Positions 1-40,427 of a DNA stretch of 64,000 nt are shown here, piece after piece (the stretch's first letter is position 1; every line of letters starts with the position of its first letter). The position numbers and the translations under genes are program-made. Below the pieces are notes generated by a model, which had not been told where the DNA came from, did no database searches, and saw only the letters and a list, made by a program, of their open reading frames with translations. Source of the DNA: Patescibacteria group bacterium (GTDB lineage: Bacteria; Patescibacteriota; Patescibacteriia; UBA1558; GWA2-36-10); NCBI GenBank assembly GCA_018819405.1, contig JAHJQF010000001.1, positions 98,097 through 162,096 on the forward strand, written 5' to 3'.

Positions 1-762
1 AGCATCTGAAAAAACACGTGGCCATAGATAAATACCTATCATACCGACTACTATCATCCCAAAAAATTTAACTATCATGCCAAAAATTCCAGCTTTATCC
101 AAAAACCTATCCTTTTCTTTTACTATTTTATTAAAAGAAATATCACCTACTACAAAATCTTTATTTATATTTAATTTGCTCAAAGACTGATAATAAAGAT
201 TTCCTCCTACATTGGCTCCTTCACTCAGTTGCAAAGGATTGTTGGCTGGCGTACCAGAAAGATATACATCTACATCATTTATAACCTTGCCGCTGATAGA
301 AGCTTTTTCCATAGCACCTTCTAGTCTACCAATTTCTCCGACAATAGAAACCATCTGACCAAAAAATGTAACATGGCCCAATACTTTACCATTACTATCA
401 ACCCTAAAATTTTGTCCCAGAGCCATGGCATTGCCACTAACTTCACCCGACACATCTACTCTTTGTCCGACTGCTCTGATAGATCCATTTATCTTGCCTT
501 TTATGGATATATTGTTTCCAGCTACAAAAATATCACCATTTATATTTTCTGAATCAATAGTGATTGTGTCACCAGCTACAAAAATGTCACCATTTACAGT
601 ACCATAAATTTCTATGGAATTACCGGCAGCATAGTAGTTTGTGTTTATGACCTTATCTTTGGCCAGAGTGACTACTTCACCACTTTGCCCGGCAAAAGCT
701 AAGGCTGACAAAGGCAAAGCCAAAAGCAGTGAAAAAATGACTAATTTTACGTGTTTAAACAT
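1..762 (-). CDS. Secreted or membrane-anchored beta-helix repeat protein, bactofilin-like (polymer-forming cytoskeletal family). The C-terminus runs off the window edge.
   Basis: ATG at 760-762 on the minus strand. Manual translation begins MFKHVKLVIFSLLLALPLSALA, which reads as a signal peptide. Repeated G-x-I/V-x-V/I-x-G units (GDIFVAGDTITI, GDIFVAGNNISIKG, GSIRAVGQRVDVSG) are typical of bactofilin (DUF583) beta-helices. The ORF track misses it because the ORF is open at the window edge. Confidence 0.5.
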   Translation of the reverse strand, partial: MFKHVKLVIFSLLLALPLSALAFAGQSGEVVTLAKDKVINTNYYAAGNSIEIYGTVNGDIFVAGDTITIDSENINGDIFVAGNNISIKGKINGSIRAVGQRVDVSGEVSGNAMALGQNFRVDSNGKVLGHVTFFGQMVSIVGEIGRLEGAMEKASISGKVINDVDVYLSGTPANNPLQLSEGANVGGNLYYQSLSKLNINKDFVVGDISFNKIVKEKDRFLDKAGIFGMIVKFFGMIVVGMIGIYLWPRVFSDA

Positions 763-838
763 AGTTGTTTTATTACTAATTATGTCCCTACATTTTAGCA
801 AATAGCCCCTAAAAATACAATTTTTTAGTTTTTAAAAA

Positions 839-872
839 AGTCCTACACCGTCACGGTGTAGGACTGCCTTTT
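839..872 (-). terminator. Rho-independent terminator for the minus-strand methyltransferase gene
   Basis: AGTCCTACACCG-TCA-CGGTGTAGGACT, a 12-bp perfect stem. A T6 run follows on the minus strand. Confidence 0.75.
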
Positions 873-1545
873 ACTTTGTCTTCTGAACAAAAGCATTTAT
901 ATTATATTTGGTCTTATAGACTCCCTCTGGCTGAAGATCAAAATGAGTCACTTTTAAAAGATAAACCAACTCACCGGTAGTAAAACTGTGATAGTATCGC
1001 CACTGTATATTATTTTTATCAGAGCGCCAAGGAATAAAAAAATCATTCCAGGAATGCTTGGACCAAAATTTTTCTAAAGAATATTTGAGATATTTTTTTT
1101 GCCATAGATTCCAATTGGTCATAAAAAGATAGCCCCCCGGCTTGAGCCAACGATTTATTTTAAAAAGTAGCTCCAAGCGCTCTCTTCTACTAGGGATGTG
1201 ATGAAAAGAGGCTATCATAAAAATCATATCAAAAGTGCCGGGCTCAAAATTCAAATCCACCATATCAGCTACTATAAATCTAGTGTCGGGGTGTTGTTTT
1301 CTGGCTTCCGCAACCAAATTTTCGCTAAAATCAACCCCTAGATAATTAAATTTTATATTGGCTGGTTGTATAGATTTTAAAAGTCGTCCATTACCGCAAC
1401 CCAGGTCTAAAATCTTGAAGTTATCTTTTATATATGGTATAAAGACTTGTAACTCTTGCCAAGGATAAACTCTAGTATGATTAAAATCACGGGCTACTTC
1501 GTTATATACGTTTTTAAGATGACTTTTTACTTTTTCACTTTTCAT
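871..1545 (-). CDS. Class I SAM-dependent methyltransferase
   Basis: LDLGCGNG motif (SAM-binding motif I) and a Rossmann-like layout. The track ORF is open back to 1596. The proposed start MKSEKV at 1545 shares a CATG with the divergent elp3 start. Confidence 0.75.
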   Translation of the reverse strand: MKSEKVKSHLKNVYNEVARDFNHTRVYPWQELQVFIPYIKDNFKILDLGCGNGRLLKSIQPANIKFNYLGVDFSENLVAEARKQHPDTRFIVADMVDLNFEPGTFDMIFMIASFHHIPSRRERLELLFKINRWLKPGGYLFMTNWNLWQKKYLKYSLEKFWSKHSWNDFFIPWRSDKNNIQWRYYHSFTTGELVYLLKVTHFDLQPEGVYKTKYNINAFVQKTK

Positions 1546-3184
1546 GCCAAAAAATATAAATAAAATATTAAAAGACGTTGTGCTGGAATTAAACAAGAAA
1601 AACTATTCCCATAATCTTGATTTTGTCCGAGACCTGAGAACTGTTTTTTCCAAACACTCTATTGCCCCAGAAGCAAAATCTAAACTTATTGTAACATATA
1701 AAGATTTGATTAAAAAGGGTATTATAAAAGAAAATAAAAAACTTGAACAACTACTGACCAAGAGGGCTGTCCGCACACTATCTGGTGTATCAGTCATTAC
1801 CGTCCTTACCAGGCCATACCATTGCCCAGGCAGATGCATCTATTGCCCACTTGAGCCTGGTATGCCCAAAAGCTATTTGTCCAATGAACCAGCGGCTCAA
1901 CGTGCCAAACGTAATTTTTTTGATCCTATCAGACAGGTGAACATGAGAATCCAAGCTTTGCAAAACAACGGCCACCAAGTAGATAAAATTGAAATAATAG
2001 TCTTGGGAGAAACCTGGTCAGCTTATCCAAAAAAATATCAAACTTCATTTATCCGTGACCTTTTTTATGCGGCCAATGTTTTCCGTTCGGCAAGCTCAGG
2101 ACAGGTTAACAAAAAAAATAAAAGGAAAGCTCGCTCACTCAAAGCTGAACAAAAAATAAATGAAAAGGCTCGTTACAAAATAATCGGCCTGACACTGGAA
2201 ACCAGACCAGACCACATCACTACTCAAGAAATAAAAAGACTACGCATGCTCGGAGCTACTCGTATGCAAATTGGTGTCCAGCACACTGATAATAAAATAC
2301 TTGATCTCATACAACGCGACCATCCAATAGAGCAAAGCATAAAGGCTACTCGTATGCTCAAAGAGGCCGGCTTCAAGGTAGACCATCACTATATGCCCGA
2401 CTTACCTGGTTCTACTCCAGCCAAAGATCTGAAAATGTTTGAGTATGTCTATAACTCTCCTGACCTACAACCTGACCAAATCAAAATATATCCTTGTGTA
2501 GTAAATGAGTATGCCCCCCTATACCAATGGTACAAAAAAGGCAAATACAAACCTTACAGCCCAAAAGAATTACTTGATCTTCTTTTGAAAATAAAAAAAA
2601 TAACACCTCCTTGGATAAGAATTAATCGCCTAATAAGAGACATACCTGAAGAAAGTATTATTGCCGGCAACAAAATCACCAACCTGCGTCAATATCTACA
2701 GGCGGAACTAAAAAAGCGAGGTCAATCTTGTCAGTGTTTGCGTTGCCGTGAAGTACGCGGTGATACCAAAGATGTAGACAAAGCTGTTTTGGTAAAAAGA
2801 GAATTTGCCGCTTCCCAAGGACAAGAAATATTTTTGAGTTTTGAAAGTAAAGACCATAAAAAAGTCTATGCTTTCCTGCGTCTAAGGTTTAATAAAAATC
2901 CAGAAAAAAATATATTTGCCGAATTAAAAAATGCCAGTCTAGTCAGGGAGCTACATGTCTATGGACAAATGATACCAACTTATGATGAAAAATCTGACGA
3001 AGAAATATCTCAAACCCAACACCTGGGACTGGGCAAACGCTTGATGGCCGAAGCAGAAAAAATCACCCACTCCCACGGCCTCAATAAAGTAGCGGTCATA
3101 TCAGGAATAGGAGTAAGAAATTATTACCGCAAATTAGGCTATCGTCTGGAGGGCACCTATATGACCAAGACTTTGACAAAATAA
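1544..3184 (+). CDS. elp3: Elp3-like radical SAM enzyme with a C-terminal GNAT domain (tRNA carboxymethyluridine synthase homolog)
   Basis: CPGRCIYCP is a radical-SAM CX3CX2C cluster motif (close variant of the canonical CX3CX2C; Elp3 proteins carry this spacing). The segment VDKIEIIVLGETWSAYPKKYQTSFIRDLFYA and the C-terminal KVAVISGIGVRNYYRKLGYRLEGTYMTK match my memory of the Elp3 central and HAT regions. Length 546 aa. Confidence 0.8.
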   Translation: MPKNINKILKDVVLELNKKNYSHNLDFVRDLRTVFSKHSIAPEAKSKLIVTYKDLIKKGIIKENKKLEQLLTKRAVRTLSGVSVITVLTRPYHCPGRCIYCPLEPGMPKSYLSNEPAAQRAKRNFFDPIRQVNMRIQALQNNGHQVDKIEIIVLGETWSAYPKKYQTSFIRDLFYAANVFRSASSGQVNKKNKRKARSLKAEQKINEKARYKIIGLTLETRPDHITTQEIKRLRMLGATRMQIGVQHTDNKILDLIQRDHPIEQSIKATRMLKEAGFKVDHHYMPDLPGSTPAKDLKMFEYVYNSPDLQPDQIKIYPCVVNEYAPLYQWYKKGKYKPYSPKELLDLLLKIKKITPPWIRINRLIRDIPEESIIAGNKITNLRQYLQAELKKRGQSCQCLRCREVRGDTKDVDKAVLVKREFAASQGQEIFLSFESKDHKKVYAFLRLRFNKNPEKNIFAELKNASLVRELHVYGQMIPTYDEKSDEEISQTQHLGLGKRLMAEAEKITHSHGLNKVAVISGIGVRNYYRKLGYRLEGTYMTKTLTK

Positions 3185-3252
3185 ACTAAATATAATTAAA
3201 TACAATAAAAGATCTTTAAACAACTGTCTTTCTCACAACAAGGAGGCTAAAA

Positions 3253-3540
3253 TTGAACACTTCCAGACACTCTATCAGCCTGCACAGGTCTGATGGAAAA
3301 CTAGGGGTGGACTTTGACTCTCCTGAAACACTAGCCAAATTCTTGGCTATACTAATAGAGGAAGGAAAGCCCGAAAACAGCTACTTGATCCCGGTCTTAG
3401 AAAATAATGGTGTAGTACCCAGAGACAACCCAGACTTTCGAGCCTTGCTCGATAGATTAGGTGTCACCGACTACACTATTCCCAATGTTCTGCGCGCTCG
3501 CTTTTTAGAAAAACTCCCCAAACTAGAAAAGGAGTCATGA
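3253..3540 (+). CDS. Hypothetical protein, first gene of GC-rich island 1
   Basis: TTG start at 3253 with AAGGAGG 6 nt upstream. About 55% GC against a ~35% background. No recognisable domain. Confidence 0.5.
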   Translation: MNTSRHSISLHRSDGKLGVDFDSPETLAKFLAILIEEGKPENSYLIPVLENNGVVPRDNPDFRALLDRLGVTDYTIPNVLRARFLEKLPKLEKES

Positions 3541-3541
3541 C

Positions 3542-3991
3542 ATGGAATATGAACTCAACCTAGGTTGGTTCGAAAAACTCCCGCTTGACCAAAAGGACGG
3601 ACTGATCAAGAACATCGAGGTGCGTGCCTCCAGAGACCTGTTTTCGGACAGGGAAGTACGCCTGGCCGCTGATGTCTGCCTGCCCATCCTCCGGGCTATC
3701 CGCCAGGGTCATGGCATCACTGCTGAGAGTCTGGACCTGGTCCAGCTGGCTGAAAGCCGAGGATTTCGTCGCTCGGAGATTGAGCCTATCATCAGGAAAG
3801 CCTGGCATCTGTTTCAAACGCCAATTCCCACCAAGCGAGCCGCTCGCTACATCGGCAAATCGCCACGACAGGCCAGACGTTTAGTAGCTCGGATGGCTCG
3901 CCGTAACGATGATGTGATCAAGACCGCCAAAGGCTGGCTGGTTCCTCTGGCCGCTCTCGATTCCTACCTGACTGGCGAGTGGCGGCCATAA
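3542..3991 (+). CDS. Putative HTH DNA-binding protein (excisionase/AlpA-like C-terminus), GC-rich island 1
   Basis: Arg-rich C-terminal segment AARYIGKSPRQARRLVARMARR...GWLVPL looks like a helix-turn-helix. Its start overlaps the upstream gene's stop (ATGA coupling). Followed by the GC-rich hairpin at 4008-4051. Confidence 0.5.
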   Translation: MEYELNLGWFEKLPLDQKDGLIKNIEVRASRDLFSDREVRLAADVCLPILRAIRQGHGITAESLDLVQLAESRGFRRSEIEPIIRKAWHLFQTPIPTKRAARYIGKSPRQARRLVARMARRNDDVIKTAKGWLVPLAALDSYLTGEWRP

Positions 3992-4007
3992 GCAGCCACA
4001 AGCAAAT

Positions 4008-4051
4008 AGCCGGTCGCCTCGCTCTGCAAATGCAGAAGCGGGCGACCGGCT
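4008..4051 (+). terminator. GC-rich hairpin terminator of island 1
   Basis: AGCCGGTCGCC...GGCGACCGGCT is a perfect 11-bp stem with an inner CTGCAAATGCAG sub-hairpin, placed right after the stop. Confidence 0.5.
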
Positions 4052-4097
4052 CTATTAAACTTTATAAAAAAATATTGCCTATCGTTTATAATGTACT

Positions 4098-4208
4098 TTA
4101 CCCCGTTAAATAAACTCAAAGAATTTGAGTTTAATTTTAAGTGTTGCTTAAAATTATTTAACGGGGTAAACTAAACCCAGCACCTTTTTTAAAAAAGGTG
4201 CTGGGTGA
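4098..4208. repeat. CCCCGTTAAATAAA inverted-repeat pair, copy a, followed by a second hairpin
   Basis: TTTACCCCGTTAAATAA (4098-4114) and TTATTTAACGGGGTAAA (4154-4170) form a perfect 17-bp inverted repeat with a palindromic ACTCAAAGAATTTGAGT centre. Then CCCAGCACCTTTTTT/AAAAAAGGTGCTGGG (4175-4208). Confidence 0.75.
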
Positions 4209-4232
4209 ATAACGTAATTAATACCCAATAAA

Positions 4233-5495
4233 ATGACAAATATAGAAAAAAACGATCCACAAATTGCCAAAATACTTCAACAAGAATTGAGACGCCAAAG
4301 ACAGGGTGCTGAGATGATTGCCTCGGAAAATTTTGTCTCGCCTGCTGTACTAGAAGCCGCTGGTTCAGTCCTGACCAACAAATACTCTGAAGGTTATCCG
4401 AATAAAAGATACTATGGTGGCAATGAATTTATAGATCAATCTGAACAACTAGCCATTGATAGAGCCAAAAAATTATTTGGAGCCGAGCACGCCAATGTCC
4501 AGCCTCATGCTGGAAGTCCAGCCAATCTAGCAGCTTATTTTGCCTTGACTGATTTGGGTGATACTATTTTAGGATTTTCACTGGCTCACGGCGGACATTT
4601 GACCCATGGGCATCCGGTCAATTTTTCCGGCAAATTTTACAATTTTGTCCATTACGGAGTAGACAAAAAAACCGAGTTAATAGATTTTGACGAGGTTACT
4701 AAATTGGCCAGAGAACATAAACCAAAAATAATCTTGGCTGGAGCTTCAGCTTATTCTAGAAAAATTGATTTTGACAAATTCAAAAACATTGCTGATGAGG
4801 TTGGCGCCTACCTAATGGTAGACATGGCTCATATTGCCGGACTGGTAGCTGTTGGATTACATCCCGATCCAATTCCTTATGCCGATGTAGTGACTACCAC
4901 CACTCACAAAACATTGCGCGGTCCCAGAGGCGCGATGATACTTTCCAAAATTGAAGACCGACTGCACCCTGATGACAAAAAGAATCTGGCCCAAAAAATT
5001 GACTCGGCAGTTTTCCCTGGTATGCAAGGTGGACCCTTGGAACATATCATTGCTGCCAAAGCTGTGGCCTTCAAAGAAGCCTTAGAACCATCTTTTAAAG
5101 ACTACCAAAGTCAAATACTAAAAAATTGTAAAGTCCTAGAAAATAAATTCCGTGAAGCTGATATCCGCATGGTCTCAGGTGGCACTGACAATCATCTTTT
5201 GATGATTGATGTCACCACAGTCGGTCTCAGCGGCAAAGAAGCTGAAACACTTCTTGATAAAATCCATATTTTTACCAACAAAAATATGATACCTTACGAC
5301 CCGCGGACACCTTTTGATCCGTCAGGCATCAGACTAGGAACCGCTGCTCTTACTACCCGTGGATTAAAAGAAAAAGATATAGAGATAATCTCTGATATTA
5401 TTATTGACACTCTAAAATCTAAACAAGCCAGAGAGGAAAATAAAACAAAGGTCACGGAATTGATGAAAAAATTTGAGCTTTACCCAGAATTGTAA
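4233..5495 (+). CDS. glyA: Serine hydroxymethyltransferase
   Basis: Segments GGHLTHGH and [13 protein letters not shown] (PLP-lysine region). 420 aa. Confidence 0.95.
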
Positions 5496-5501
5496 ACCAA
5501 T

Positions 5502-5581
5502 TGTCATTACGAACGTAGTGAAGTAATCCAAACTTTTAGATTGCTTCGTCGTTCGCTACGCTCTCTCCTCGCAATGACAAA
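5502..5581 (+). repeat. ~80-bp hairpin-forming intergenic repeat, copy 1 (TTGTCATTACGA...TCGCAATGACAA)
   Basis: Homologous to the reverse complement of 8909-8992. Has terminal inverted repeats and an internal imperfect long stem. Ends 11 nt before the folD ATG. Confidence 0.7.
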
Positions 5582-5592
5582 TACGAAAAACT

Positions 5593-6426
5593 ATGGACAA
5601 AATAATTGACGGCCAAAAACTGGCAGAAAAAATTAGGCAGGAAATTAAACAAGAAATATGCGCCAAAAAATTGAAGCCCAGTTTGGCAGTGATTTTAGTT
5701 GGTTCTGATCCAGCTAGTCAGCTTTATGTATCCAAAAAGAAAAAAGCCTCGCAAGATGTTGGTATTGATTTTCATGAATACCTTTTGGAAGCTGACAGTA
5801 GCCAAGAAAAAGTCTTGGAAGTAATAGATTTTTTAAACAAAGACACTAGTGTAGATGCCATACTTGTCCAACTGCCCTTACCAAAACATTTGGATACCGA
5901 CACAATTATCAAAGCTATTGATCCCAAAAAAGATGTAGATGGTTTTCATCCAGACAATATCAAAGACTTTTTAAATGACAAGGCTTTAATCACGCCTGGA
6001 TTGCCCTTGGGAGTTTTGAGAATATTGGAGCACACTAATCAAAATCTAGAAAACAAAACAGCTGTCATAGTTTCCAAAAGTACTGTCTTTGCCGGGCCAA
6101 TGATAAAAATCTTGGAAGATAGAAAAATAAAAGTCCAACAAATAATGCCTGATGACAAAAACCTAGGTGCCAAAACCAGTCAGGCTGATATTCTGATAGT
6201 TTCTTGTGGCAAAGCTTTTTTTATAAAAGAAGATATGGTAAAAAATGATTCCATAGTCATAGATATCGGTACAAATAAAATCGACAACAATTATGTTGTC
6301 GGTGATGTCGATTATAGTGCGGTGTTTGATAAAGTAAAATTTATCACTCCGGTACCAGGTGGCGTCGGACCAATGACCGTGGCTATGCTACTTTATAATA
6401 CTGTCAAACTAGCTGAAGCTGGATAA
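5593..6426 (+). CDS. folD: Bifunctional methylenetetrahydrofolate dehydrogenase/cyclohydrolase
   Basis: N-terminus IIDGQKLAEKIRQEIKQEI and C-terminal PVPGGVGPMTVAMLL motif. 277 aa. Confidence 0.9.
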   Translation: MDKIIDGQKLAEKIRQEIKQEICAKKLKPSLAVILVGSDPASQLYVSKKKKASQDVGIDFHEYLLEADSSQEKVLEVIDFLNKDTSVDAILVQLPLPKHLDTDTIIKAIDPKKDVDGFHPDNIKDFLNDKALITPGLPLGVLRILEHTNQNLENKTAVIVSKSTVFAGPMIKILEDRKIKVQQIMPDDKNLGAKTSQADILIVSCGKAFFIKEDMVKNDSIVIDIGTNKIDNNYVVGDVDYSAVFDKVKFITPVPGGVGPMTVAMLLYNTVKLAEAG

Positions 6427-6489
6427 AAAAAGCCCCAACCAGTCTTTACTAAGACTGCTGGGGCTATAGAAGAAGCCTGATGACAAGTA

Positions 6490-7116
6490 TCACCGATGAC
6501 AAACAAACACTATTTGTCTGTCGCCAGCAAAAAACTCATCATTCTTGGAGCCAATATGCTTGCCCACAAGGAAATTGGTGGATGCAGCATCAGGGTGGAT
6601 GCAAAAAATGACCAGATCGCCACTAACTCTGAGTTTGACAGGTTCCATAGCCAAGTAAAGCCATTCGTTCCAATGTCCATAATGTTGCAAACGCAATTGG
6701 GGACCAAGCTCAAACGGACATAGACCGTAACCCAACTCCAGACCGCGTTGGCAGATGTCGGGGTAGCGCGCGCCATCCTTGAAGCCGAGTTCTGCCACAG
6801 TCGGAGCAACAACATTGACCTCCATGGGCTGATCAAGAATCTCAATGTCAGTCTGGTCCAACATAGCACCGCCTACACGATCAACCTTCATGCCTTTTTC
6901 AGCAAAGGCTTGATAGAAATCACGACTTGTCTTAAGACCCGTGCCGAGCTTTACTCGACACAATACTGGGGAAAACCCAAAGGCTTTGCGCAAAATAGCA
7001 CGGAGTTTTTCTGGTTTACTGACGTAGACCTCCATCTCTTGACTGGACATCGTGGGTAAGTTTTCCACGACCACAGCAACAAAAGTCAACACTAGGTTAA
7101 AAAGTGACTTCGGCAT
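6490..7116 (-). CDS. Hypothetical protein on a GC-rich segment (island 2)
   Basis: 208-aa ORF of about 50% GC inside a low-GC genome. I recognise no domain. Confidence 0.45.
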   Translation of the reverse strand: MPKSLFNLVLTFVAVVVENLPTMSSQEMEVYVSKPEKLRAILRKAFGFSPVLCRVKLGTGLKTSRDFYQAFAEKGMKVDRVGGAMLDQTDIEILDQPMEVNVVAPTVAELGFKDGARYPDICQRGLELGYGLCPFELGPQLRLQHYGHWNEWLYLAMEPVKLRVSGDLVIFCIHPDAASTNFLVGKHIGSKNDEFFAGDRQIVFVCHR

Positions 7117-7173
7117 GGCTGTTCTCCTTTATGAGGCTGGTGTTGGTTTAAGGGACACTAACTATCTAATATA

Positions 7174-7202
7174 TTGACAATTTATAAATTTGTCTATACT
7201 AT
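7174..7202 (+). promoter_or_regulatory. Sigma70-like promoter upstream of the TrmB-family regulator gene
   Basis: TTGACA at 7174-7179. TATACT or TACTAT follows after a 15-17 nt spacer, about 100 nt upstream of the ATG at 7300. Confidence 0.4.
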
Positions 7203-7299
7203 AAAACATAATTGTCATAAAAATACAAAAATTATATAATTTATCAAAATATTATCTAATATTAGTCAATAAAATATCTACATAAAATAATAATATTGT

Positions 7300-8055
7300 A
7301 TGAATATAGCTACAACTTTAAAAAATATTGGTTTTGATGATAATAAAGCCAGAGTATATCAGGCTTTATTATCCCTTGGTACTGCACCAGCTGGCGCCAT
7401 CGCCGCCAAATCTGGCATAGTAAGATCTACTGTCTATAAAATCTTGGAAGAGTTGATTAGTGATGGTTTAGCAGAAAATGTTGAGGGCAAGGTCAAAAAA
7501 TTTATTGCTCTACATCCAAGCGCCTTAATAAGAATGCTGGAAAATAAAAAAACAGCCACAGAAAATATTCTGCCAGAATTATTAGGAATATTTACCTCTC
7601 CAAAATTTAAACCTCGCCTGAAATTTTATGAGGGTCTAGATGGCAAGAAAAAAGTTTTTGCAGATATCTTAACTTTACAAAATGACATTGTCTATACTTT
7701 TTCCCCCATCCAAGAAATCCTAACTGTTTTTGGGAAAACCTACAGCAAACATTTTACAGAAAAAAGAGTAAAGAATAAAATTTGGCGCTATGCTTTGCGT
7801 TCAATTGAAACAACAGCCGACAAAACCAAAGAGTGGGAATTTTACGGCTCTGATGAAAAACTGATGCGACAAATCCGCTTTTTGCCGCCAAAAATAAAAT
7901 GCGATACTTTAATTCAAATATACGCTGATAAAATATCAGTCGTTGCCTCACATAATGAAAATTATGCTTTTATTATTGAGAGTAAAGAATTATCAGGCCT
8001 TATGAAACAATTATTTTTGTGGCTTTGGAATACAGCTGATAAACCATCACAATAA
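7300..8055 (+). CDS. TrmB-family winged-HTH transcriptional regulator
   Basis: N-terminal ARVYQALLSLGTAPAGAIAAKSGIVRSTVYKILEELISDGL matches the TrmB HTH pattern. 251 aa. Confidence 0.65.
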   Translation: MNIATTLKNIGFDDNKARVYQALLSLGTAPAGAIAAKSGIVRSTVYKILEELISDGLAENVEGKVKKFIALHPSALIRMLENKKTATENILPELLGIFTSPKFKPRLKFYEGLDGKKKVFADILTLQNDIVYTFSPIQEILTVFGKTYSKHFTEKRVKNKIWRYALRSIETTADKTKEWEFYGSDEKLMRQIRFLPPKIKCDTLIQIYADKISVVASHNENYAFIIESKELSGLMKQLFLWLWNTADKPSQ

Positions 8056-8104
8056 ACTCTTCTGCCAACCACTTATGAGTGCGACCGCCCTATTGGCGAT
8101 ATTT

Positions 8105-8896
8105 CTACAATAATGTATTTTGCCAAGAACCCATCTTGCCGGCCACTTTGGCAGTTTTTATTTTATCCACATCAAATATTCTGACCGCGTCTCTTAGATG
8201 ACAGTGCGCTTTTATCTTATTGCCATCAATTCTTTGAATATCAATTTTTCTGATAGTAGTTTTACCTTTGTCATCCATATATTCAATTTCTAATTGATCA
8301 CCATTTTTCAAGGCAGCTACTATCTTGTCAGGGACTGTCTTACCATTGCCATTGGACCAGCGAGCTACTATTTTTTCTTTGCGCCCAGCATTGGTGTACC
8401 AAATATAGCCATGCTCCTTGCCATAATCATAAACTTCTTTGGTTACCTTCACATCATCCAAACAATATTTTATAAGGCTGTCCCAATCACCTTGCCTATA
8501 ATAAAATATAGCATCCAATCCTGCGCCTGACTTACCATAACCCAAAGTACTCTGAGCAACTGTTTCCAGCTTGAGACGATGCCCAAGAGCAAAGACTACC
8601 TCTTCTAAAATGTCCAGGTGCCCGATAGTGCTCAAATTAAAATCCTTGAAATATGGCTGAAGCACTGTAAAATCAAAACTCTTACTATTAAAACCAATAA
8701 CTAACTCGGTATTTTTGAGTAATTCCAAAAGCTCACCAAATTCCTCTTCTTTGAAAGCCCTGTATCCGTTGCGATTATAAGAATAGACGCCCACCACTGA
8801 TACGCCCAAAAGATGACGATTGTGCTGACCACCCACTTCATCAAAAGTTTTTTTGGTTTCAAGGTCTAATACGATTTTGTCTTTATTTTCTGACAT
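8105..8896 (-). CDS. DEDD-type 3'-5' exonuclease domain protein with a C-terminal extension
   Basis: N-terminal LDLETKK (Exo I D-x-E motif) and ribonuclease H-like spacing. About 90 aa of uncharacterised C-terminal domain. Confidence 0.5.
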   Translation of the reverse strand: MSENKDKIVLDLETKKTFDEVGGQHNRHLLGVSVVGVYSYNRNGYRAFKEEEFGELLELLKNTELVIGFNSKSFDFTVLQPYFKDFNLSTIGHLDILEEVVFALGHRLKLETVAQSTLGYGKSGAGLDAIFYYRQGDWDSLIKYCLDDVKVTKEVYDYGKEHGYIWYTNAGRKEKIVARWSNGNGKTVPDKIVAALKNGDQLEIEYMDDKGKTTIRKIDIQRIDGNKIKAHCHLRDAVRIFDVDKIKTAKVAGKMGSWQNTLL

Positions 8897-8908
8897 AATG
8901 TTTTATTA

Positions 8909-8992
8909 TTGTCATTGCGAGGAGCGAATAAAATGAGCGACGCGGCAATCTAAAAACTTCTAGATTACTTCGCTGCCGCTCGTAATGACGTG
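8909..8992 (-). repeat. ~84-bp hairpin-forming intergenic repeat, copy 2 (transcribed orientation on the minus strand)
   Basis: Reverse complement aligns with 5502-5581 over most of its length. Ends 12 nt before the start of the minus-strand gene 8105..8896. Confidence 0.7.
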
Positions 8993-9019
8993 TTAACATT
9001 ATAACAAATCCTCATATTT

Positions 9020-11044
9020 TTACCAATCATCTACACTAGGCAAAAAACTACCTTCTTCTGGTGTATATTCTACTCCGTCTTCAGCCGCAAAGGTCACGCT
9101 TCTGGCCAAATCATTGTACTGCAAAAGACGACTATCAATATCTACTACAAAAGGGGATGGCTTCATTTGTTTTAATCCGTCATATCTAATCATCGCCAGA
9201 GGATAGGTCAAAAACAAATATTTTTCTGCCCTAGTGACAGCTACATAAAATAGACGACGCTCCTCTTCTCTCTCTTCTTCACTGACTGATAAGGGATGAG
9301 GAAAAGACTGGTCAGTCATAGACATCACAAATACGGCCGGCCATTCCAGGCCTTTGGCCTGATGGACAGTAGATAGTACTACAGCATTTTGATTTTGTTC
9401 TCTATTTTGTTTGGCCGAATAGCTTTCTTGCAGACTTATTTCATTCAAAAATAGTTCCAAAGAATCATACTCAGTGGCAAAAAGAGCCAGCTGCTCCAAA
9501 TCATCCTGACGATATTTATAATCTGTATATTTACTCATCAAATAAAAACTATACTGATTAATAATAATAGCCAACAGCTTACTGAGATTTTCATCTTTGT
9601 GCTGCAATAAGGCCTCAAGAGTGACTATTAATTCGCTCCAGCTCTTAGCAGCTTTACTGGCTATCTCAATTTTAAAATCCAAAATATCTTCCAATTTATC
9701 AAGAGCCGATATTTTTTGATAAATAAGTTGGGCTGTCACCGCACCAATACCTTCGTACATATGAAGCACTCTCATCCAGGACACTTCATCACGAAAATTA
9801 CCCAGCACTTTAAGATATGCCAAGACATCTTTGACGTGAGCTCTTTCAAAAAAACGAAGACCACCTCTCATCTCATAATTTATGCCTCGACGATTGAGCT
9901 CCATTTCTAGAGCCCGACTGTGTGACGAGGCACGAAATAAAACAGCTATATCAGATTCTCTCATACCCCTTTCAATCAACTCCTCTATCTTGTCAGCAAT
10001 ATAACTAGCTTCTTGATTGTGACTCATCAAAGCTACTAGTTCTGGCCGGACATGAGCTTCTTTGACCGCTTTTAGATTTTTGGCAAATTGATAATTATTG
10101 GCCTTTATAATATCGTTGGCCAGATCCAATATCTCCGGTGTAGATCGATAATTTGTTTCTAGTTTATATATTTTGGTATTACTAAATCTATCCGGAAACT
10201 CCAAAATATTTCTGATATCAGCTGCTCGAAAAGAATATATACTCTGAGCATCATCACCGACTGCCAAAATATTTTTGTGTGTTTGAGCCAGATTAAAAAT
10301 AATTTCAGCCTGAATAGTATTGGTATCCTGATACTCATCTACTAATATATAATCCCACTTGTCTTGAAGTTTTTTTGATACTTCTGGATGTTCGGTCATT
10401 GCTTTCCAAAAAATAAGCAAATCATCAAAATCCAAAACATTGGATTCTTTTTTTCGGCGCTGATACTCACCAGCTATTTTTTCAAAAATTTCCAAAAGCG
10501 GCATCCACTCGGGAAATTTGGTTTCCAGGGCTTCTTCAATACTGAGTTTACTGTTGGTGGCAAAGCTGATTGTTTCTTTAAATAGACTAGCTGATGGCTT
10601 ATTTTTTTCTGACATATTAACTAGCATTTCTTTGGATATCATTTTTATCAAACTTTCACTGTCATCACTATCCATTATAGTAAAATTTGGTTCAACTCCT
10701 ATTGCTTTGCCATATATTCTCAAAAGCCTGTTTGCTACACTGTGGAATGTCCCGCCCCAAAGAGGAAATTTAGCATCTTTTCTTATGCCCAAAAGATGCC
10801 TGACTCTAGCTATCATCTCACTGGCTGCTTTATTGGTAAAAGTAAGGAGTAATATCCGAGCCGGATCTACTCCACTATCTACCAGCCAAGCGGCCCGATA
10901 GGTCAGGGTTCTAGTTTTGCCACTACCAGCGCCAGCCAAAACTAAATGAGGCCCTTTACCTGAAGTAACGACCTCGTATTGTTCTTTGTTTAGTTCATTT
11001 TTGAAATCCAATTGACTCATAGTAGAAGTATTATAACTAATCAT
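9020..11044 (-). CDS. uvrD: UvrD/PcrA-family ATP-dependent DNA helicase
   Basis: Walker A GAGSGKTRT. Helicase motif order characteristic of the SF1 UvrD family. 674 aa. Confidence 0.85.
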   Translation of the reverse strand: MISYNTSTMSQLDFKNELNKEQYEVVTSGKGPHLVLAGAGSGKTRTLTYRAAWLVDSGVDPARILLLTFTNKAASEMIARVRHLLGIRKDAKFPLWGGTFHSVANRLLRIYGKAIGVEPNFTIMDSDDSESLIKMISKEMLVNMSEKNKPSASLFKETISFATNSKLSIEEALETKFPEWMPLLEIFEKIAGEYQRRKKESNVLDFDDLLIFWKAMTEHPEVSKKLQDKWDYILVDEYQDTNTIQAEIIFNLAQTHKNILAVGDDAQSIYSFRAADIRNILEFPDRFSNTKIYKLETNYRSTPEILDLANDIIKANNYQFAKNLKAVKEAHVRPELVALMSHNQEASYIADKIEELIERGMRESDIAVLFRASSHSRALEMELNRRGINYEMRGGLRFFERAHVKDVLAYLKVLGNFRDEVSWMRVLHMYEGIGAVTAQLIYQKISALDKLEDILDFKIEIASKAAKSWSELIVTLEALLQHKDENLSKLLAIIINQYSFYLMSKYTDYKYRQDDLEQLALFATEYDSLELFLNEISLQESYSAKQNREQNQNAVVLSTVHQAKGLEWPAVFVMSMTDQSFPHPLSVSEEEREEERRLFYVAVTRAEKYLFLTYPLAMIRYDGLKQMKPSPFVVDIDSRLLQYNDLARSVTFAAEDGVEYTPEEGSFLPSVDDW

Positions 11045-11095
11045 TGATTTTTATACAAATCTATGATTTAATGCCCTAGTTATTAAACAAAATTT

Positions 11096-12157
11096 ATGTC
11101 TTTTTCCCTAGGAATTGTCGGCCTACCAAATGTCGGCAAATCAACACTATTTCAAGCATTAACCAGAAACAAGGTAGAAGCCAGTAACTACCCTTTTTGT
11201 ACTATTGATCCCAATGTCGGCGTGGTGGCAGTGCCAGACGAACGACTGGAAAAATTGGCTTTGATGTCAAAATCCGCCAAAATAATTCCCACCACCATTG
11301 AATTTGTGGACATTGCCGGACTAGTCAAGGGCGCGTCAGAAGGAGAAGGATTAGGTAACAAGTTTTTGGCTCACATTAGAGAGGTGGACGCCATAGTGCA
11401 AGTGGTCCGACGCTTTGAAGACAAAAATGTCACTCATGTCCATGGCAATATTGATCCGGAATATGACAAACAAATAATTAACCTAGAGCTTATTCTAGCC
11501 GACCTTGATACAGTGACTAAGACTTATGACAAAGTGGTCTCCAAAATAAAAGGCCCTCATGACAAGCAACTTGACGCAGAAAAAATAGTTTTGGAACGTG
11601 TCAAAGAAGTATTAGAAAACAATCAATTGGCTAATACTCTAGAATTTAAACCTGAAGAAAAAAAATTACTACGTGGCTACAATCTTTTGACTACCAAGCC
11701 AATTATATACCTATACAATATAGACGAAGTTGATTTGTCCGCCGACTTGGGACTGCCGGAAAACACTATTCCTATTTGCGCCAAAATAGAAGCTGAGCTA
11801 GCTGATTTGGAAGCAAACGAAGCCAAAGAGTATCTCAAAGAATTGGGTATTGCCAAAAGCGGCTTGGACAATCTGATTACTGCTAGTTACAAATTACTTA
11901 ATCTCATTACCTTTATTACCACCGGCCCGGAAGAAACCAGAGCCTGGACAGTGGAAGATGGCGCCAAAGCCCCACAAGCGGCTGGAGTGATTCATACCGA
12001 CTTTGCCAAAGGCTTTATCAGAGCCGAAGTCATAAATTGGCAGACCCTACTAGATGATGGCGGCTGGAATCAGGCCAAAGAAAAAGGACATATGCGTATG
12101 GAAGGCAAAGAATATATTATCAAAGATGGTGATACTGTCCATTTTCATTTTAACTAA
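11096..12157 (+). CDS. ychF: Ribosome-binding ATPase YchF
   Basis: [15 protein letters not shown]-loop and a C-terminal TGS-like region. 353 aa. Confidence 0.9.
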
Positions 12158-18194: not shown

Positions 18195-18330
18195 TCACCC
18201 CGTTAAATAAATTCAATTTAATGGGTGATAATAGAAACCATATAGTATATTTTTAAAAAACATACAATAAACTAGCTAATTAATTGAATTTAAAATTTAA
18301 GAAACTTAAATTTTATTTAACGGGGTAAAT
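18195..18330. repeat. CCCCGTTAAATAAA inverted-repeat pair, copy b
   Basis: Left arm TTCACCCCGTTAAATAAA (18195-18212). Right arm TTTTATTTAACGGGGTAAAT (18311-18330) ends 1 nt before the ATG at 18331. Confidence 0.7.
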
Positions 18331-20208
18331 ATGAAAAATCTATTTAAATCACAAACTTCTTATGAAATCCTTGATTTATTTACCAAAAACCCAGATAAAA
18401 GTTGGTATATGGCTCAACTATCCAAAGAGCTTAGCAAAGATCCAGCCAATATCACCCGCGAGCTGGACAAGCTAACAAAAAACAATCTTGTCCTAGCCAA
18501 AAATCAAGCTAATAAAAAATACTACTCTCTCAACCATGACTATCGCTCTTTCAAAGAGTTGATAGACCTCTTTGAAAAAAACCGCAGCGCTGATTTCAAA
18601 GATAAATTCAATAGCCCCTGGCTTTTGGCTGAAGATATCCCAAATATGTGCCCGTTTTTTTCTCAAATATGGATGAATTGTTTTGTTGATGAATTTGCCA
18701 ACCCCAGCGGCCGCGCCTATCAAAAAGTAGTGGCTATTTTTAAGGATTATCACCTTTGGTTTTATTATGATAAAAAGGACGCCTATCAAGTAGGGCAAAA
18801 TATAGTAGACAAATTCCAAAAAGACCCCCGGTTTATGCAAGAGGTCAATCAAAATATTATAAAACTGTCTGATAAATTAACAGCTTATTGTCAAAAACTG
18901 CCCCAGGATAATCTGGAAAAATTATCAAACAAAAAACTGTGGGATTATTACAAAAAACATGAAGATGTCCATACTGACTACTATCGCTATGGGTGGCTCC
19001 CAGTAGCAGCTGATATGTTTGGCAATAATCTGACCGAAACCGGCAAAGAAATTTTAAGAAATATGGGCGTCAGCGATGATAATATGGCCGAATATCTTAT
19101 TTTACTTACCGAGCCAGCCAAGCCGTCACTCATCAAAATAGAAGAAGATGAAATAAAACAAATGGCCGCTGATATACAAGCTGACCTCAGACAATTTAAA
19201 TTATTTAAAGAGCTTTTCAAAAAATTCAAAGAGGAAGATGTAAAGCTCTTTGGCTTATATACTCACTCTCCTGAATATGAGGCCAAATTTGAAGAAAGAG
19301 TCAGAGAGCTTATCAAAAAAATTGATCCTAAGATTTCTAAAAAACTAGAAGATCACTACCAAAAATATTTTTATACAAAATTTTTATTTACTGAAGAGCA
19401 AGGTGTATATAATTTTGAACACTACCTAAAAAAACTTGTCCGACTGGTCAATAATGAGACAAACATCGGCAAAACCCTAAAAGATGAAGTCACGGCTACA
19501 AAAATAGAGCTAAAAAAAAGAGACAGCTTGATAAAAAAACTAAAACTATCATCTCAGCATAAAATATTTTTTGACCAGTGGGGTGAATTTATGATTACGA
19601 AAATATACCGTCGCTATGCCCAGCTTTTTGCCATCTATCGAATGGTGCCTATTATAGAACAAATAGGCAAAAGACTTGGTCTCAGCATCAAAGAAACAAA
19701 ATTCATGACAAGCGAAGAACTATACAACGCTTTATTTAAAAATAAATTAAACAAAGAAGAAATAAAAAAAAGAATACCTTTTTCCGTATATTATACCGAC
19801 AAAAATGAACACGCCTTTTATACTGGGCGCATGGCCAAACAAGCGACTGAAATAATCCAGACTGAAAATATAGAAGAAGTCTCTGAAATCAAAGGCCAGT
19901 GCGGAGCCCGTGGTCATGCCAAAGGACCGGTCAAAATAATAAATGTAATAGCTGACATGCAAAAAATGCAAGCCGGCGACATCCTCGTTTCTATCTCCAC
20001 CCAACCCGACCTTTTACCGGCCATGAAAAAAGCCGCCGCTTTCGTAACAGAACAAGGTGGGGTCACCTCTCACGCTGCCATAGTTGCCCGTGAATTAAAA
20101 ACGCCTTGTGTGATTGCTACCAAAATCGCTACCAAAGTATTAAAAGACGGCGACTTGGTAGAAGTAGATGCTGATAAGGGTATTGTAAAGATTTTGAATA
20201 AGAAATAA
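18331..20208 (+). CDS. Winged-HTH / PEP-utilizing-enzyme mobile (swivel) domain fusion protein
   Basis: The N-terminus SYEILDLFTKNPDKSWYMAQLSKELSKDPANITRELDKL reads as a wHTH. The C-terminus GGVTSHAAIVARELKTPCVIATK carries the phosphohistidine-domain motif of PEP synthase / PPDK / rifampin phosphotransferase. 625 aa. Confidence 0.6.
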   Translation: MKNLFKSQTSYEILDLFTKNPDKSWYMAQLSKELSKDPANITRELDKLTKNNLVLAKNQANKKYYSLNHDYRSFKELIDLFEKNRSADFKDKFNSPWLLAEDIPNMCPFFSQIWMNCFVDEFANPSGRAYQKVVAIFKDYHLWFYYDKKDAYQVGQNIVDKFQKDPRFMQEVNQNIIKLSDKLTAYCQKLPQDNLEKLSNKKLWDYYKKHEDVHTDYYRYGWLPVAADMFGNNLTETGKEILRNMGVSDDNMAEYLILLTEPAKPSLIKIEEDEIKQMAADIQADLRQFKLFKELFKKFKEEDVKLFGLYTHSPEYEAKFEERVRELIKKIDPKISKKLEDHYQKYFYTKFLFTEEQGVYNFEHYLKKLVRLVNNETNIGKTLKDEVTATKIELKKRDSLIKKLKLSSQHKIFFDQWGEFMITKIYRRYAQLFAIYRMVPIIEQIGKRLGLSIKETKFMTSEELYNALFKNKLNKEEIKKRIPFSVYYTDKNEHAFYTGRMAKQATEIIQTENIEEVSEIKGQCGARGHAKGPVKIINVIADMQKMQAGDILVSISTQPDLLPAMKKAAAFVTEQGGVTSHAAIVARELKTPCVIATKIATKVLKDGDLVEVDADKGIVKILNKK

Positions 20209-38425: not shown

Positions 38426-39784
38426 ATGCCTAGTAATCAAAACGGAATCAAAATTTCCGGCGACAAAAAAGACTGTCTGCGTCTAGCCTCATGGCTGACT
38501 AGTACGGTCGCCAAAAATGTGGCTGGTATCAGAGAAATCAAACTATCAGGAACATCAGGACTGTGTGACAGAGCTATAGCCCTAAAAGAGAATCAAATGT
38601 GCCTTATGGTGCAAGGAGACCAAGTGCTTTGGCACTTTTGCCAAACAAAGAGCTGTGCGTCACAAATCTTTGTGCTCAAGCCTCAGAACAATGTCGAGGC
38701 AGATATTTTGCTAAAAACTTTAGCTGACTATCTGACCAAGATCTGTGGCAAGACTAGCATCAACTTGGTCAAAGCACTGGAATGCGGTCCACAACAACTC
38801 GTCAACAAATATTCACGCCCCGCCATCAGCCAACCAGAAGACCCAAGCCATATCCTCTACTCTAGACGCTTTCCTCAACCAATCAAACTGCCAGAAAAAA
38901 CCGAAGAGGTCTATCTGGCTCTACTGCTTCTTTTACCCACTTACGGACAGGCACTTCTGGACGTAAGCGGAGTTTTTCTCCTGCCCAATCCCGTCCGTCT
39001 TCTTGATGAATTTGCCCACAACTTGGGAAAACAAAAACTCTGGTGGCAAACCGGCTGGAGTCAACTCCTAAAAATCACTCCCAAGATAATCGAACGTGCC
39101 CGTAACGGCAAAGGGATGCTTGTCCATCGCATTAGATTGGAATCAAATGGAGTATTGGCCACAAACTTGCAGACCAAAAAGGAGGCTGAGACAATGCCGG
39201 AAAAAACCTTTAGACTCAATGCTAGACAACACATGGTCTACCACTCCCTTTTGAGATTGGCCGGAGATGATCTTGCTAATGTCGTGGAAATCAGTCGCTA
39301 CGCCACCAGATTGCTCAAGCTTTCCAGCTTTGACATTCCCAGAGGCAGTATTAGCAACTACATCAAACAGCTAACCAGACTAGGCTTGGTCGAAAATGGC
39401 TCTCAGCGCGGTAACATCAAGGTTTACCGCCAGCCCACCTCTATTATTGACGGTCATCAAGCCACCGATCCGCCAAAGAAAGTCGAAAAAAAAGTTGCCA
39501 AAAAGGGAAACGGCGATGACAATACGACAACAGACAATCCTGATACTCCTACCTCTTCCAAGACACCACAAAAACCTGGTAATGGTAGCAATAGCTTGCT
39601 TGCCATACTGACTGGCGGAAACGGAACAGGAGACTCTGTCGACCAACTGGTCGAACAGGCCACCAGACAATTTCACGGCATCGGCGGTGTGTTGGAGTTG
39701 GCTCGACGTTTACAAGAAGCCGGCTTCCAGACCCACGACAACAACGACGGCACACACACTATTTCTTTCACCACCAGCAAGTGA
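38426..39784 (+). CDS. Hypothetical 452-aa protein with a predicted winged-HTH and a low-complexity linker (GC-rich island 4)
   Basis: About 52% GC. AAGGAGG lies 6 nt upstream. A wHTH-like segment (ARQHMVYHSLLRLAGDDLANVVEISRYATRLLKL...GNIKVY). A K/T/D/N-rich linker. Own terminator at 39812-39842. Confidence 0.55.
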   Translation: MPSNQNGIKISGDKKDCLRLASWLTSTVAKNVAGIREIKLSGTSGLCDRAIALKENQMCLMVQGDQVLWHFCQTKSCASQIFVLKPQNNVEADILLKTLADYLTKICGKTSINLVKALECGPQQLVNKYSRPAISQPEDPSHILYSRRFPQPIKLPEKTEEVYLALLLLLPTYGQALLDVSGVFLLPNPVRLLDEFAHNLGKQKLWWQTGWSQLLKITPKIIERARNGKGMLVHRIRLESNGVLATNLQTKKEAETMPEKTFRLNARQHMVYHSLLRLAGDDLANVVEISRYATRLLKLSSFDIPRGSISNYIKQLTRLGLVENGSQRGNIKVYRQPTSIIDGHQATDPPKKVEKKVAKKGNGDDNTTTDNPDTPTSSKTPQKPGNGSNSLLAILTGGNGTGDSVDQLVEQATRQFHGIGGVLELARRLQEAGFQTHDNNDGTHTISFTTSK

Positions 39785-39811
39785 GCATCATCTTGAGCAC
39801 AGAAACATGAG

Positions 39812-39842
39812 GGCACGCGAAACAGAACGCGTGCCTTTTTTT
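39812..39842 (+). terminator. Canonical rho-independent terminator (GGCACGCG-AAACAGAA-CGCGTGCC-TTTTTTT)
   Basis: Perfect 8-bp GC stem followed by a T7 run. Confidence 0.8.
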
Positions 39843-39845
39843 GTA

Positions 39846-39874
39846 TTGACAAAATCCCAATATATTACTAATAT
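39846..39874 (+). promoter_or_regulatory. Sigma70 promoter for the cupin gene
   Basis: TTGACA, a 17-nt spacer, then TAATAT. Confidence 0.5.
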
Positions 39875-39920
39875 ATGCAATTACGCTCCCCTCACAGAAA
39901 CCCAAACCCAGGAGGAAAAC

Positions 39921-40427
39921 ATGCTCATTATCAGACAGGGTCTCCAAGGCATTGCTGTGCTTGACCACAGCAAAGAGCTCGGCCAGCCTGGCCAGTACAG
40001 CTCCTACAAAGGAGACGAACTGGAAGATCTGGCCAGCATCGTAGCGGCAGCCAAAACCAATGGCTTTGAAATCCGCTACTACTACAAGGATCTGCATACC
40101 TCGGCGAGCGAGATCATTCCGACCAAAATAATCATCACCGACATTCCGCCGATGACTGTCCAGAAGTTCCACAGCCATCAGGCCGTACACGAGCTTTCGG
40201 TGGTCACCGACGGCGAAATCGTAGTCATCGATTCCGACGTCCTGAACGAAGCTGATGTCGAGGCCATTCGAAGCCAGGGCGTCGCTCTCCGTGTCAACGA
40301 CATGGTGATCGAAGATCCGGGAGTACGCCACAGCGTAGCCAACCTCACAGACAGCTACGCTACCTTCACCACGGTCCAGACTGCCCGAATTCCCTTTGAA
40401 AGATTTGAGGCCGACTGGGTGCGCTAA
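39921..40427 (+). CDS. Cupin-domain metalloprotein (GC-rich island 4)
   Basis: Cupin motif 1 HSHQAVHELSVVTDG (HxH(x)4E(x)6G) and motif 2 PGVRHSVAN (PG(x)2H(x)3N). AGGAGG lies 8 nt upstream of the ATG at 39921. The track ORF upstream extension (from 39687) is rejected. Confidence 0.65.
   Translation: MLIIRQGLQGIAVLDHSKELGQPGQYSSYKGDELEDLASIVAAAKTNGFEIRYYYKDLHTSASEIIPTKIIITDIPPMTVQKFHSHQAVHELSVVTDGEIVVIDSDVLNEADVEAIRSQGVALRVNDMVIEDPGVRHSVANLTDSYATFTTVQTARIPFERFEADWVR

Follow-up and report, generated by a model that had tools for sequence, protein, structure and literature searches.

Between the elp3 and glyA genes of a metagenome-assembled Patescibacteria genome, from a group whose organisms are uncultured, lies a short segment rich in guanine and cytosine (GC), located at positions 3240-4060 of the 64,000-nucleotide stretch of contig JAHJQF010000001.1 analyzed here (hereafter the window) and carrying two small open reading frames (ORFs), ORF1 and ORF2. 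The explanation that we favor, with a probability of about 0.6, is that this segment is an inherited, clade-restricted gene coding for a DNA-binding protein, which is split in this genome, gives rise to two products and has its high GC content maintained. Our confidence is high regarding the structural and evolutionary side of this account, and moderate regarding the regulator function and the two-product model, both predicted from the sequence. In the proposed scenario, a gene vertically inherited within a narrow Patescibacteria group (Parcubacteria-type genomes) would encode a three-domain DNA-binding protein, and a frameshift in its variable linker would have split it here into ORF1 (the N-terminal domain) and ORF2 (the middle domain and the winged helix), the two being translationally coupled. 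The main elements of the locus are the following.

1544-3184, plus strand: Elp3 gene (TIGR01211, E = 5.7e-160), 5' neighbor of ORF1
3240-3246, plus strand: Shine-Dalgarno sequence of ORF1, AAGGAGG, 6 nt 5' of the TTG at 3253
3253-3540, plus strand: ORF1, TTG start, 95 residues; cistron of the N-terminal domain (beta-hairpin and five helices)
3529-3534, plus strand: internal Shine-Dalgarno sequence of ORF2, AAGGAG, within the end of ORF1, 7 nt 5' of the ATG at 3542
3542-3991, plus strand: ORF2, ATG start, 149 residues; helical middle domain and C-terminal winged helix
3839-3973, plus strand: HTH_17 (excisionase-family, MerR-like) winged-helix domain, ORF2 residues 100-144
4233-5495: SHMT gene, glyA (PF00464, E = 2.3e-171), 3' neighbor of ORF2

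The evidence for an inherited gene comes from its relatives. Searched exhaustively with phmmer, 1.84 billion representative proteins gave 23 matches, one of which (P0025) proved to be a spurious repeat protein, leaving 22 family representatives; a profile search of 5.8 billion clusters brought in further family members only, all of them unnamed, and a metagenome scan yielded five additional loci. When species genomes were searched with the alignment of the N-terminal domain, the family gene was found in 5 of 185,579, every one belonging to Patescibacteria or Parcubacteria. The gene is located beside or 3' of elp3 in 12 other related loci (designated by L numbers) and, wherever the downstream flank is available, 5' of glyA-folD. 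The order methyltransferase (minus strand), Elp3, family gene, SHMT, FolD is found in L001, L008, L012/L016, L013, L015/L018 and L019, and Elp3 adjoins the gene upstream in the partial loci L004, L005, L006, L011 and L017; at the place of P0007, the order is Elp3, CorA, family gene, SHMT, FolD. The family gene is single-copy and its chromosomal position is fixed. It is also fast-evolving, since identities to the window proteins (41-82% for ORF1 and 24-57% for ORF2) fall below those of the flanking proteins (70-89%).

In most of these relatives, the two parts form one protein. A single ORF of 232-263 residues, equivalent to ORF1 plus ORF2, is present in nine loci (L001, L005, L006, L011, L012, L013, L015, L017 and L019), and a 678-bp fragment (L003) is open in frame through the junction. 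The split form is found in the window and in L004, where the junctions are at different points; between the fused L011 and its close relative L004, which is split, the difference is a 4-nt insertion or deletion in the poly-A stretch of the linker (a run of eight A versus four). Each part also occurs alone, the C-part (the region equivalent to ORF2) in L008-L010 and the N-part (equivalent to ORF1) in genes located elsewhere (P0017, P0019, P0022, L014 and L020). Two of the latter, at 4830-5309 of L014 and 3947-4357 of L020, are N-domain-only homologs on Patescibacteria contigs, which end in SG(L/P)EQ and in whose examined flanks neither Elp3 nor SHMT was detected; the N-domain is therefore also a free-standing gene elsewhere. 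With the same gene at the same locus, and mostly in fused form, we are thus dealing with an inherited gene and not with an insert or a toxin-antitoxin pair.

Regarding the junction in the window, an initial annotation of this DNA had described two overlapping small genes coupled through an ATGA, the first one starting at a TTG codon with a strong Shine-Dalgarno sequence, in a segment placed between elp3 and glyA. The placement is confirmed by the TIGR01211 match on the 5' side and the PF00464 match on the 3' side, as is the TTG start, which AAGGAGG precedes by 6 nt. The ORFs of 95 and 149 residues are real as well, but they do not overlap: a single base separates the TGA stop of ORF1 (3538-3540) from the ATG of ORF2, which is in the +1 frame. 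Likewise, the tight coupling of the two cistrons stands, whereas the ATGA is not the start of ORF2, its ATG (3537-3539) opening the third frame, which closes after 8 codons. Another assembly of the same organism (Logan SRR6514730) agrees with the window without a difference over 2163 nt, junction included, and the ORF2 product has the same sequence as 'hypothetical protein KKH39_00510 [Patescibacteria group bacterium]'. The junction is bracketed by the two copies of a 14-nt direct repeat (TTAGAAAAACTCCC at 3505-3518 and TTCGAAAAACTCCC at 3569-3582), which code for LEKLP at the end of ORF1 and for FEKLP at the start of ORF2; the repeat may be a trace of the splitting event or due to chance.

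The boundary between the two parts has a conserved feature of its own. A strong Shine-Dalgarno sequence is found 4-16 nt 5' of the boundary ATG, at which the C-part starts, in all 11 two-part loci (9 fused and 2 split), with forms such as AAGGAGG, GGAGG, GGGAGG and AAGGAG. In the nine fused genes this motif is located inside the coding sequence, and the codons, the frames and the amino acids that carry it vary from locus to locus. Such a motif stands before only 1 of 48 other internal Met codons, the background density being 6.3%. At the first start, a Shine-Dalgarno sequence with a TTG codon is present in each of the nine loci that have the N-part. From this pattern we infer, with moderate confidence, that the C-part is translated independently everywhere and that the fused genes yield two nested products. 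The weak TTG start would then deliver the long or the N-terminal product, and the strong Shine-Dalgarno sequence with its ATG the short DNA-binding one. The conservation of the latter signals would also explain why frameshifts in the linker were tolerated in the window and in L004; it is probably through its own ribosome-binding site and ATG that the C-part survived the split.

Base composition is the other hallmark of the gene. The initial annotation had rightly called the segment atypical for its genome, but the 55-57% GC that it gave applies only to ORF2 with the hairpin that follows it (56.6%), the value for 3240-4060 as a whole being 52.4% (ORF1, 45%; ORF2, 56%). The GC content at third codon positions (GC3) amounts to 0.61 in ORF2 and 0.47 in ORF1, versus a mean of 0.33 (standard deviation 0.077) for the 53 long ORFs of the window, in which GC3 exceeds 0.42 only in three GC-rich islands. 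All three codon positions are shifted, as are the proportions of arginine (8.2% versus 4.5%), lysine (6.5% versus 10.6%) and tryptophan (1.9% versus 0.2%), and the shift in codon usage is general, extending to all C- and G-ending codons, with GAG barely changed. The same holds in every locus, gene GC3 (0.38-0.77, the maximum being that of L005) standing above that of the flanks (0.24-0.44). Four-fold-site distances between orthologs are at least 1.06-1.42 substitutions per site for the flanks and range from 1.0 to saturation for the gene, and the retention of the same codon for identical residues is no higher in the gene than in its flanks. Synonymous sites have thus turned over and yet are GC-rich, which excludes a recent transfer; judging from these comparisons, the GC-richness looks old and maintained and not like the trace of such a transfer.

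What might maintain it is a more delicate question. Window ORF1 is 80% identical to its counterpart in L011, with the same codon used in a proportion of 0.66, the flanking Elp3 being at 74% and 0.51; that ORF1 is closer to L011 than Elp3 is hints at lateral exchange. A tendency toward higher GC has been reported for recombining bacterial genes (Lassalle et al. 2015, PMC4450053). The leading candidate cause of the excess would hence be GC-biased gene conversion, acting on a locus that recombines and evolves fast, a proposal that we make with low confidence. Polarizing AT-to-GC versus GC-to-AT changes by majority rule provided 40 sites only, which is too few, and the procedure is biased. Several other candidates were considered and rejected. 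The folding of ORF2 mRNA (z = -1.29) is no better than that of shuffled sequences; the longest stop-free antisense runs measure 40-159 codons depending on the locus, with unconserved synonymous sites, which does not fit an overlapping antisense gene; a codon link to Elp3 through tRNAs with modified wobble uridine (U34) does not account for a shift covering all C- and G-ending codons; high-expression codon bias is at odds with a GC3 of at most 0.40 in every ordinary gene of the window; and an Rfam scan of 3100-4400 for known RNA families or riboswitches found nothing near any gathering score, so that such RNAs account neither for the GC nor for the hairpins.

Turning to the protein, the arginine-rich, excisionase-like helix-turn-helix that had been noticed in the second ORF proved correct for its C-terminal domain only, by PF12728 and by Foldseek, and the suggested AlpA-type likeness was not recovered, Phage_AlpA not being among the Pfam families that the 24 family members match at E <= 0.1. 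PF12728 is matched by 16 of these 24 members at E <= 0.1, with a best E value of 6.6e-8 and, for the fused ortholog P0002, 25.2 bits (E = 2e-5); taken together, the family members make the HTH_17 assignment convincing, the window protein alone being below threshold. The AlphaFold2 model of P0002 (predicted local distance difference test, pLDDT, 91.1; predicted template-modeling score, pTM, 0.74) has at residues 189-238 a helix-helix-beta-beta-helix arrangement, i.e., a winged-helix fold, and Foldseek relates this C-terminus to Pukovnik Xis (4j2n; probability 0.82, root-mean-square deviation 3.1 Å), to RacA (5i44) and to many phage 'Excise' proteins (probability 0.99, template-modeling scores 0.6-0.7). 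The model of ORF1 is of similar quality (pLDDT 90.8, pTM 0.81), with no match to ORF1 in Pfam, NCBIfam or PADLOC and a best Foldseek E value of 1.6 against the PDB; nor does the full P0002 model have a whole-protein match in the PDB (best Foldseek E value 0.46). For the N-terminal and middle domains, the profile search returned family members only and a PDB sequence search nothing significant, and both domains are without detectable relatives. The most likely role of the protein would be that of a stand-alone transcription factor, with the winged helix binding DNA and the N-domain, tethered or free, acting as modulator.

The gene is also accompanied by putative transcription signals.

3173-3201, plus strand: promoter-like block, TTGACA (3173-3178) followed by TATAATTAAAT, conserved with fixed spacing
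3208-3217, no strand assigned: perfect palindrome AAAGATCTTT, near the expected transcription start; candidate operator
4008-4051, plus strand: GC-rich hairpin after the ORF2 stop, likely an intrinsic terminator

The promoter-like block can be read as TTGACA-17 nt-TTAAAT or as TTGACA-12 nt-TATAAT and is present in the window, L004, L011, L012, L013 and L015, whether or not its TTGACA belongs to the Elp3 coding sequence; the window has a single copy of the block, versus zero expected, and we infer that it is a promoter. The core GATCTTT of the palindrome is found at the same position in 8 of the 9 two-part loci compared, L005 having GACCTTT and L006 lacking the motif. This GATCTTT/AAAGATCTTT box is a candidate self-regulation site, and the gene product may thus control its own transcription from the start point. 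At the other end, the perfect 11-bp GC stem announced by the initial annotation is borne out (AGCCGGTCGCC at 4008-4018 and GGCGACCGGCT at 4041-4051, the arms extending to 21 nt), with a folding energy of -38.6 kcal/mol (z = -6.7 versus shuffles). A hairpin stands right after the stop in every ortholog locus with downstream sequence, usually with a T-run. Its role as a terminator is likely, but the terminator scan made no call at 4008-4051, because the T-tail of the window hairpin (CTATTAAACTTTAT) is poor. Having its own promoter-like block and 3' hairpin, the gene looks autonomous.

Signs of mobility were sought around the gene. There is no tRNA within positions 1-12000, no direct repeat flanks the segment and no integrase is found among the neighbors, which comprise the methyltransferase, Elp3, SHMT, FolD, a TrmB-type regulator, RNase H/WYL and UvrD, all those with a family assignment being housekeeping or regulatory. 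Neither IMG/VR nor the GenBank phage collection contains a homolog, and PHROG matches are weak only (E = 0.0047 and 0.17); a phage or plasmid-like origin was rejected on these grounds, as was a defense system, for which PADLOC had no match. A role as an excisionase, i.e., a recombination directionality factor, was discarded as well: the locus is conserved and has no adjacent integrase, att-type repeats or tRNA, and, with 149 residues for ORF2 and 232-263 for the fused orthologs, the protein does not have the size of single-domain excisionases (about 55-80 residues). A type II toxin-antitoxin pair was likewise set aside, the parts being fused in at least 9 loci and no toxin family being detected in Pfam, NCBIfam or PADLOC.

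These results bear on the idea, put forward in the initial annotation, of a foreign module or mobile-element remnant recently inserted between elp3 and glyA. Such an island would account for a GC3 of 0.47-0.61 where 0.31-0.34 is typical of the genome, far beyond the ordinary genes of the window, for the excisionase family of the C-terminal domain and for the inverted repeats nearby. We nevertheless regard it as very improbable: the gene occupies the same locus in the 12 relatives, with flanking proteins 70-89% identical; integrase, tRNA, direct repeats and viral or phage relatives were all searched for and none was found; the arms of the inverted repeat both lie downstream, in the glyA promoter/leader, which is shared with L003 and L013; and the turnover of synonymous sites between orthologs means that the acquisition cannot be recent. 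The initial annotation had itself proposed that finding the same two genes at the same locus in relatives, with native composition, would speak against a foreign module; the locus is indeed shared by the 12 relatives, but instead of native composition the gene shows a high GC content in each. The transfer could also have been a single ancient one, from a very GC-rich donor into the ancestor of the clade, followed by passive and slow drift with no active force. We consider this unlikely. In its favor, all codon positions and the amino-acid usage are shifted as they would be in foreign DNA, GC3 ranges from 0.38 to 0.77 across lineages as if these had drifted to differing degrees, and the family has no relatives beyond the clade that could reveal an origin. 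What counts against it is quantitative: with four-fold-site distances of at least 1.0-1.4 substitutions per site between orthologs, a rough two-state AT/GC model has more than half of the excess lost per lineage, which would place the ancestral GC3 at about 1.0, and L005 is still at 0.77.

Other readings concern the two ORFs themselves. The toxin-antitoxin or small toxin/regulator pair suggested by the initial annotation has in its favor that the cistrons are small and coupled, that one of them encodes a helix-turn-helix domain, and that three family members weakly match the antitoxin-type AbiEi_4 (E = 0.0064); with the parts covalently joined as one protein in most relatives (at least nine orthologous loci), no toxin domain by Pfam, NCBIfam or PADLOC, and a single copy at a fixed chromosomal position, we find it scarcely credible. 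That the two ORFs are the debris of a fused ancestral gene, i.e., a frameshift pseudogene in this genome, would agree with the fused form being the majority state and with the unusual divergence of window ORF2. This, too, appears improbable, given that both halves are open over their full length, that ORF2 starts exactly at the conserved Shine-Dalgarno sequence and ATG, that L004 was split independently at a different junction, that C-only (L008-L010) and N-only (P0017, P0019, P0022, L014, L020) genes occur naturally, and that conserved residues are kept in the alignment. Alternatively, a programmed +1 ribosomal frameshift at AAGGAG-UCA-UGA-C, similar to that of prfB, could rejoin ORF1 and ORF2 as a 245-residue protein; a shift at the UGA would restore the architecture of the orthologs exactly, and this stop is followed by C and preceded by a Shine-Dalgarno-like motif just 5' of it. 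By the rules of prfB, however, both the re-pairing and the spacing are wrong, as CAU, the +1 codon, offers no re-pairing to the tRNA-Ser that reads UCA, and the Shine-Dalgarno sequence directly abuts the P-site codon (0 nt) where a spacing of 3 nt would be required. Moreover, this sequence is ideally spaced to the ATG at 3542 and is conserved in fused genes that need no shift, and L004 would require another shift, of -1, so that we give recoding the lowest likelihood of all these possibilities.

The inherited, split regulator gene that we favor has itself to face several unfavorable points. Within its clade, window ORF2 has diverged furthest (44% identity to L001 and to L011, which are 58% identical to each other), and its divergence could mean decay after the split and not function. 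Taken alone, it reaches 13.2 bits (E = 0.11) with PF12728, against a curated threshold of 27 bits. Among genomes with Elp3 proteins 70-86% identical, conserved gene order says little on whether the gene works together with elp3 or glyA. Behind the gene-conversion idea stands a single phylogenetic incongruence, and a modest one. Finally, the AAAGATCTTT palindrome is a single copy in the 64-kb window, the chance expectation of a 10-mer being 0.33.

Downstream of the gene, the inverted-repeat pair that had been reported directly after the segment was found at 4101-4113 and 4154-4166 (CCCCGTTAAATAA), both arms being 3' of the gene within the glyA promoter/leader and the right one overlapping the spacer of the conserved glyA promoter TTGCTT-17-TAAACT (4145-4173). 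The element also follows the ortholog in L003 (623-678), and L013 has the right arm only. In the window, the CCCCGTTAAATAA/TTATTTAACGGGG pair occurs twice (4094-4173 and 18198-18325), which makes four sites versus 0.1 expected, and each time the right arm is just 5' of a gene, namely glyA and the gene of a 625-residue winged helix-turn-helix/phosphoenolpyruvate-utilizer protein at 18331. As both arms are on one side and recur in relatives and at 18198-18325, the pair does not bound the segment. Its region in the glyA leader folds at -55.5 kcal/mol (z = -10.9), and the pair could serve as a shared operator or represent a small repeated element. The same leader contains a perfect 32-nt palindrome (ACCCAGCACCTTTTTT/AAAAAAGGTGCTGGGT, 4175-4206), a single copy in the window, which interrupts TAAACTAAATAnCGTAATTAAT, continuous in L001, L008, L012, L013 and L015; a small insertion is one possibility for this palindrome, a bidirectional terminator or attenuator another.

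On the other side, a class-I S-adenosylmethionine (SAM) methyltransferase gene (871-1596, minus strand) is divergently paired with that of Elp3 (1544-3184, plus strand), a pairing also found in L001, L008, L011-L013, L015 and L019. In eukaryotes, the Elp3/Trm9 pathway associates Elp3 with a methylating partner, and by analogy this methyltransferase could be a candidate methylator of the Elp3 product.

Two further GC-rich islands are present in the window. The one at 6427-8104, between FolD and the RNase H/WYL gene, consists of a GC-rich gene (6490-7116, minus strand; GC3 0.49), whose 208-residue product has no match in Pfam, PHROG, NCBIfam or PADLOC, and of an AT-rich gene for a TrmB-type regulator (7300-8055). 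In L001, L012, L013 and L016, FolD directly adjoins RNase H/WYL; unlike the gene between elp3 and glyA, this island is a genuine lineage-specific insertion. The third island (38426-40427) is located between tsaD-like and trmB-like genes of normal composition and encodes a 452-residue protein without Pfam match (GC3 0.50) as well as a 246-residue ORF (GC3 0.60) borderline for Cupin_2 (26.8 bits versus a cut-off of 27.2).

No major picture is changed by this gene. It indicates that compositional 'islands' in Patescibacteria genomes are not to be read as recent transfers, and it offers a compact test case for the local upkeep of GC in bacteria, by biased gene conversion or by selection. It also defines a small uncharacterized family of DNA-binding proteins, with two relative-less domains and a conserved internal start, which may be among the few lineage-specific regulators of very reduced genomes. 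A bolder proposal, which we hold to be possible but doubtful, is that of a two-output locus in which a single transcript would give the long or N-terminal product from the TTG start and the short DNA-binding one from the Shine-Dalgarno sequence and ATG, frameshifts in the linker would switch the tethering of the two between fused and split forms, two folds would have no solved relatives and GC would be actively maintained although the genome is AT-rich and streamlined. If this reading of the sequences were true, GC would be upheld either by selection acting on the DNA itself or, at a hot spot of recombination, by GC-biased gene conversion, and the gene would provide a natural marker for a locus-specific evolutionary force within Patescibacteria.

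Among known systems, excisionase-family/HTH_17 proteins (PF12728, TIGR01764; e.g., Pukovnik Xis, 4j2n) share with the family the winged-helix pattern and the predicted fold over the C-terminal ~50 residues. Excisionases are, however, single-domain proteins of about 55-80 residues adjacent to an integrase in a mobile element, whereas the winged helix is here the tail of a 244-residue protein (149 when split) with two extra domains, encoded at a fixed chromosomal locus devoid of integrase and att repeats. When the family profile is compared with PDB sequences, the MerR-like RacA (PDB 5i41/5i44) comes out first, over the winged helix, but the match is non-significant (E = 0.31) and limited to the DNA-binding domain; the long coiled coil of RacA is absent from the family protein and nothing points to a chromosome-anchoring role of the RacA type. 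AlpA-type phage regulators are small arginine-rich helix-turn-helix proteins of the same broad superfamily, from which the family gene differs by having no prophage context. With genomic islands the gene shares an atypical composition, but it is present at the same site in relatives and has no mobility scars. Regarding its internal start, the best-known precedents are the Tn5 transposase and its inhibitor, the long and short forms of CheA, and ClpB, in which internal initiation gives nested products. The family gene shares with these systems an in-frame internal Shine-Dalgarno sequence with an ATG, conserved at the nucleotide level across orthologs, and differs from them in that its second product is predicted from sequence and in that the two parts also exist as separate genes, and each alone.

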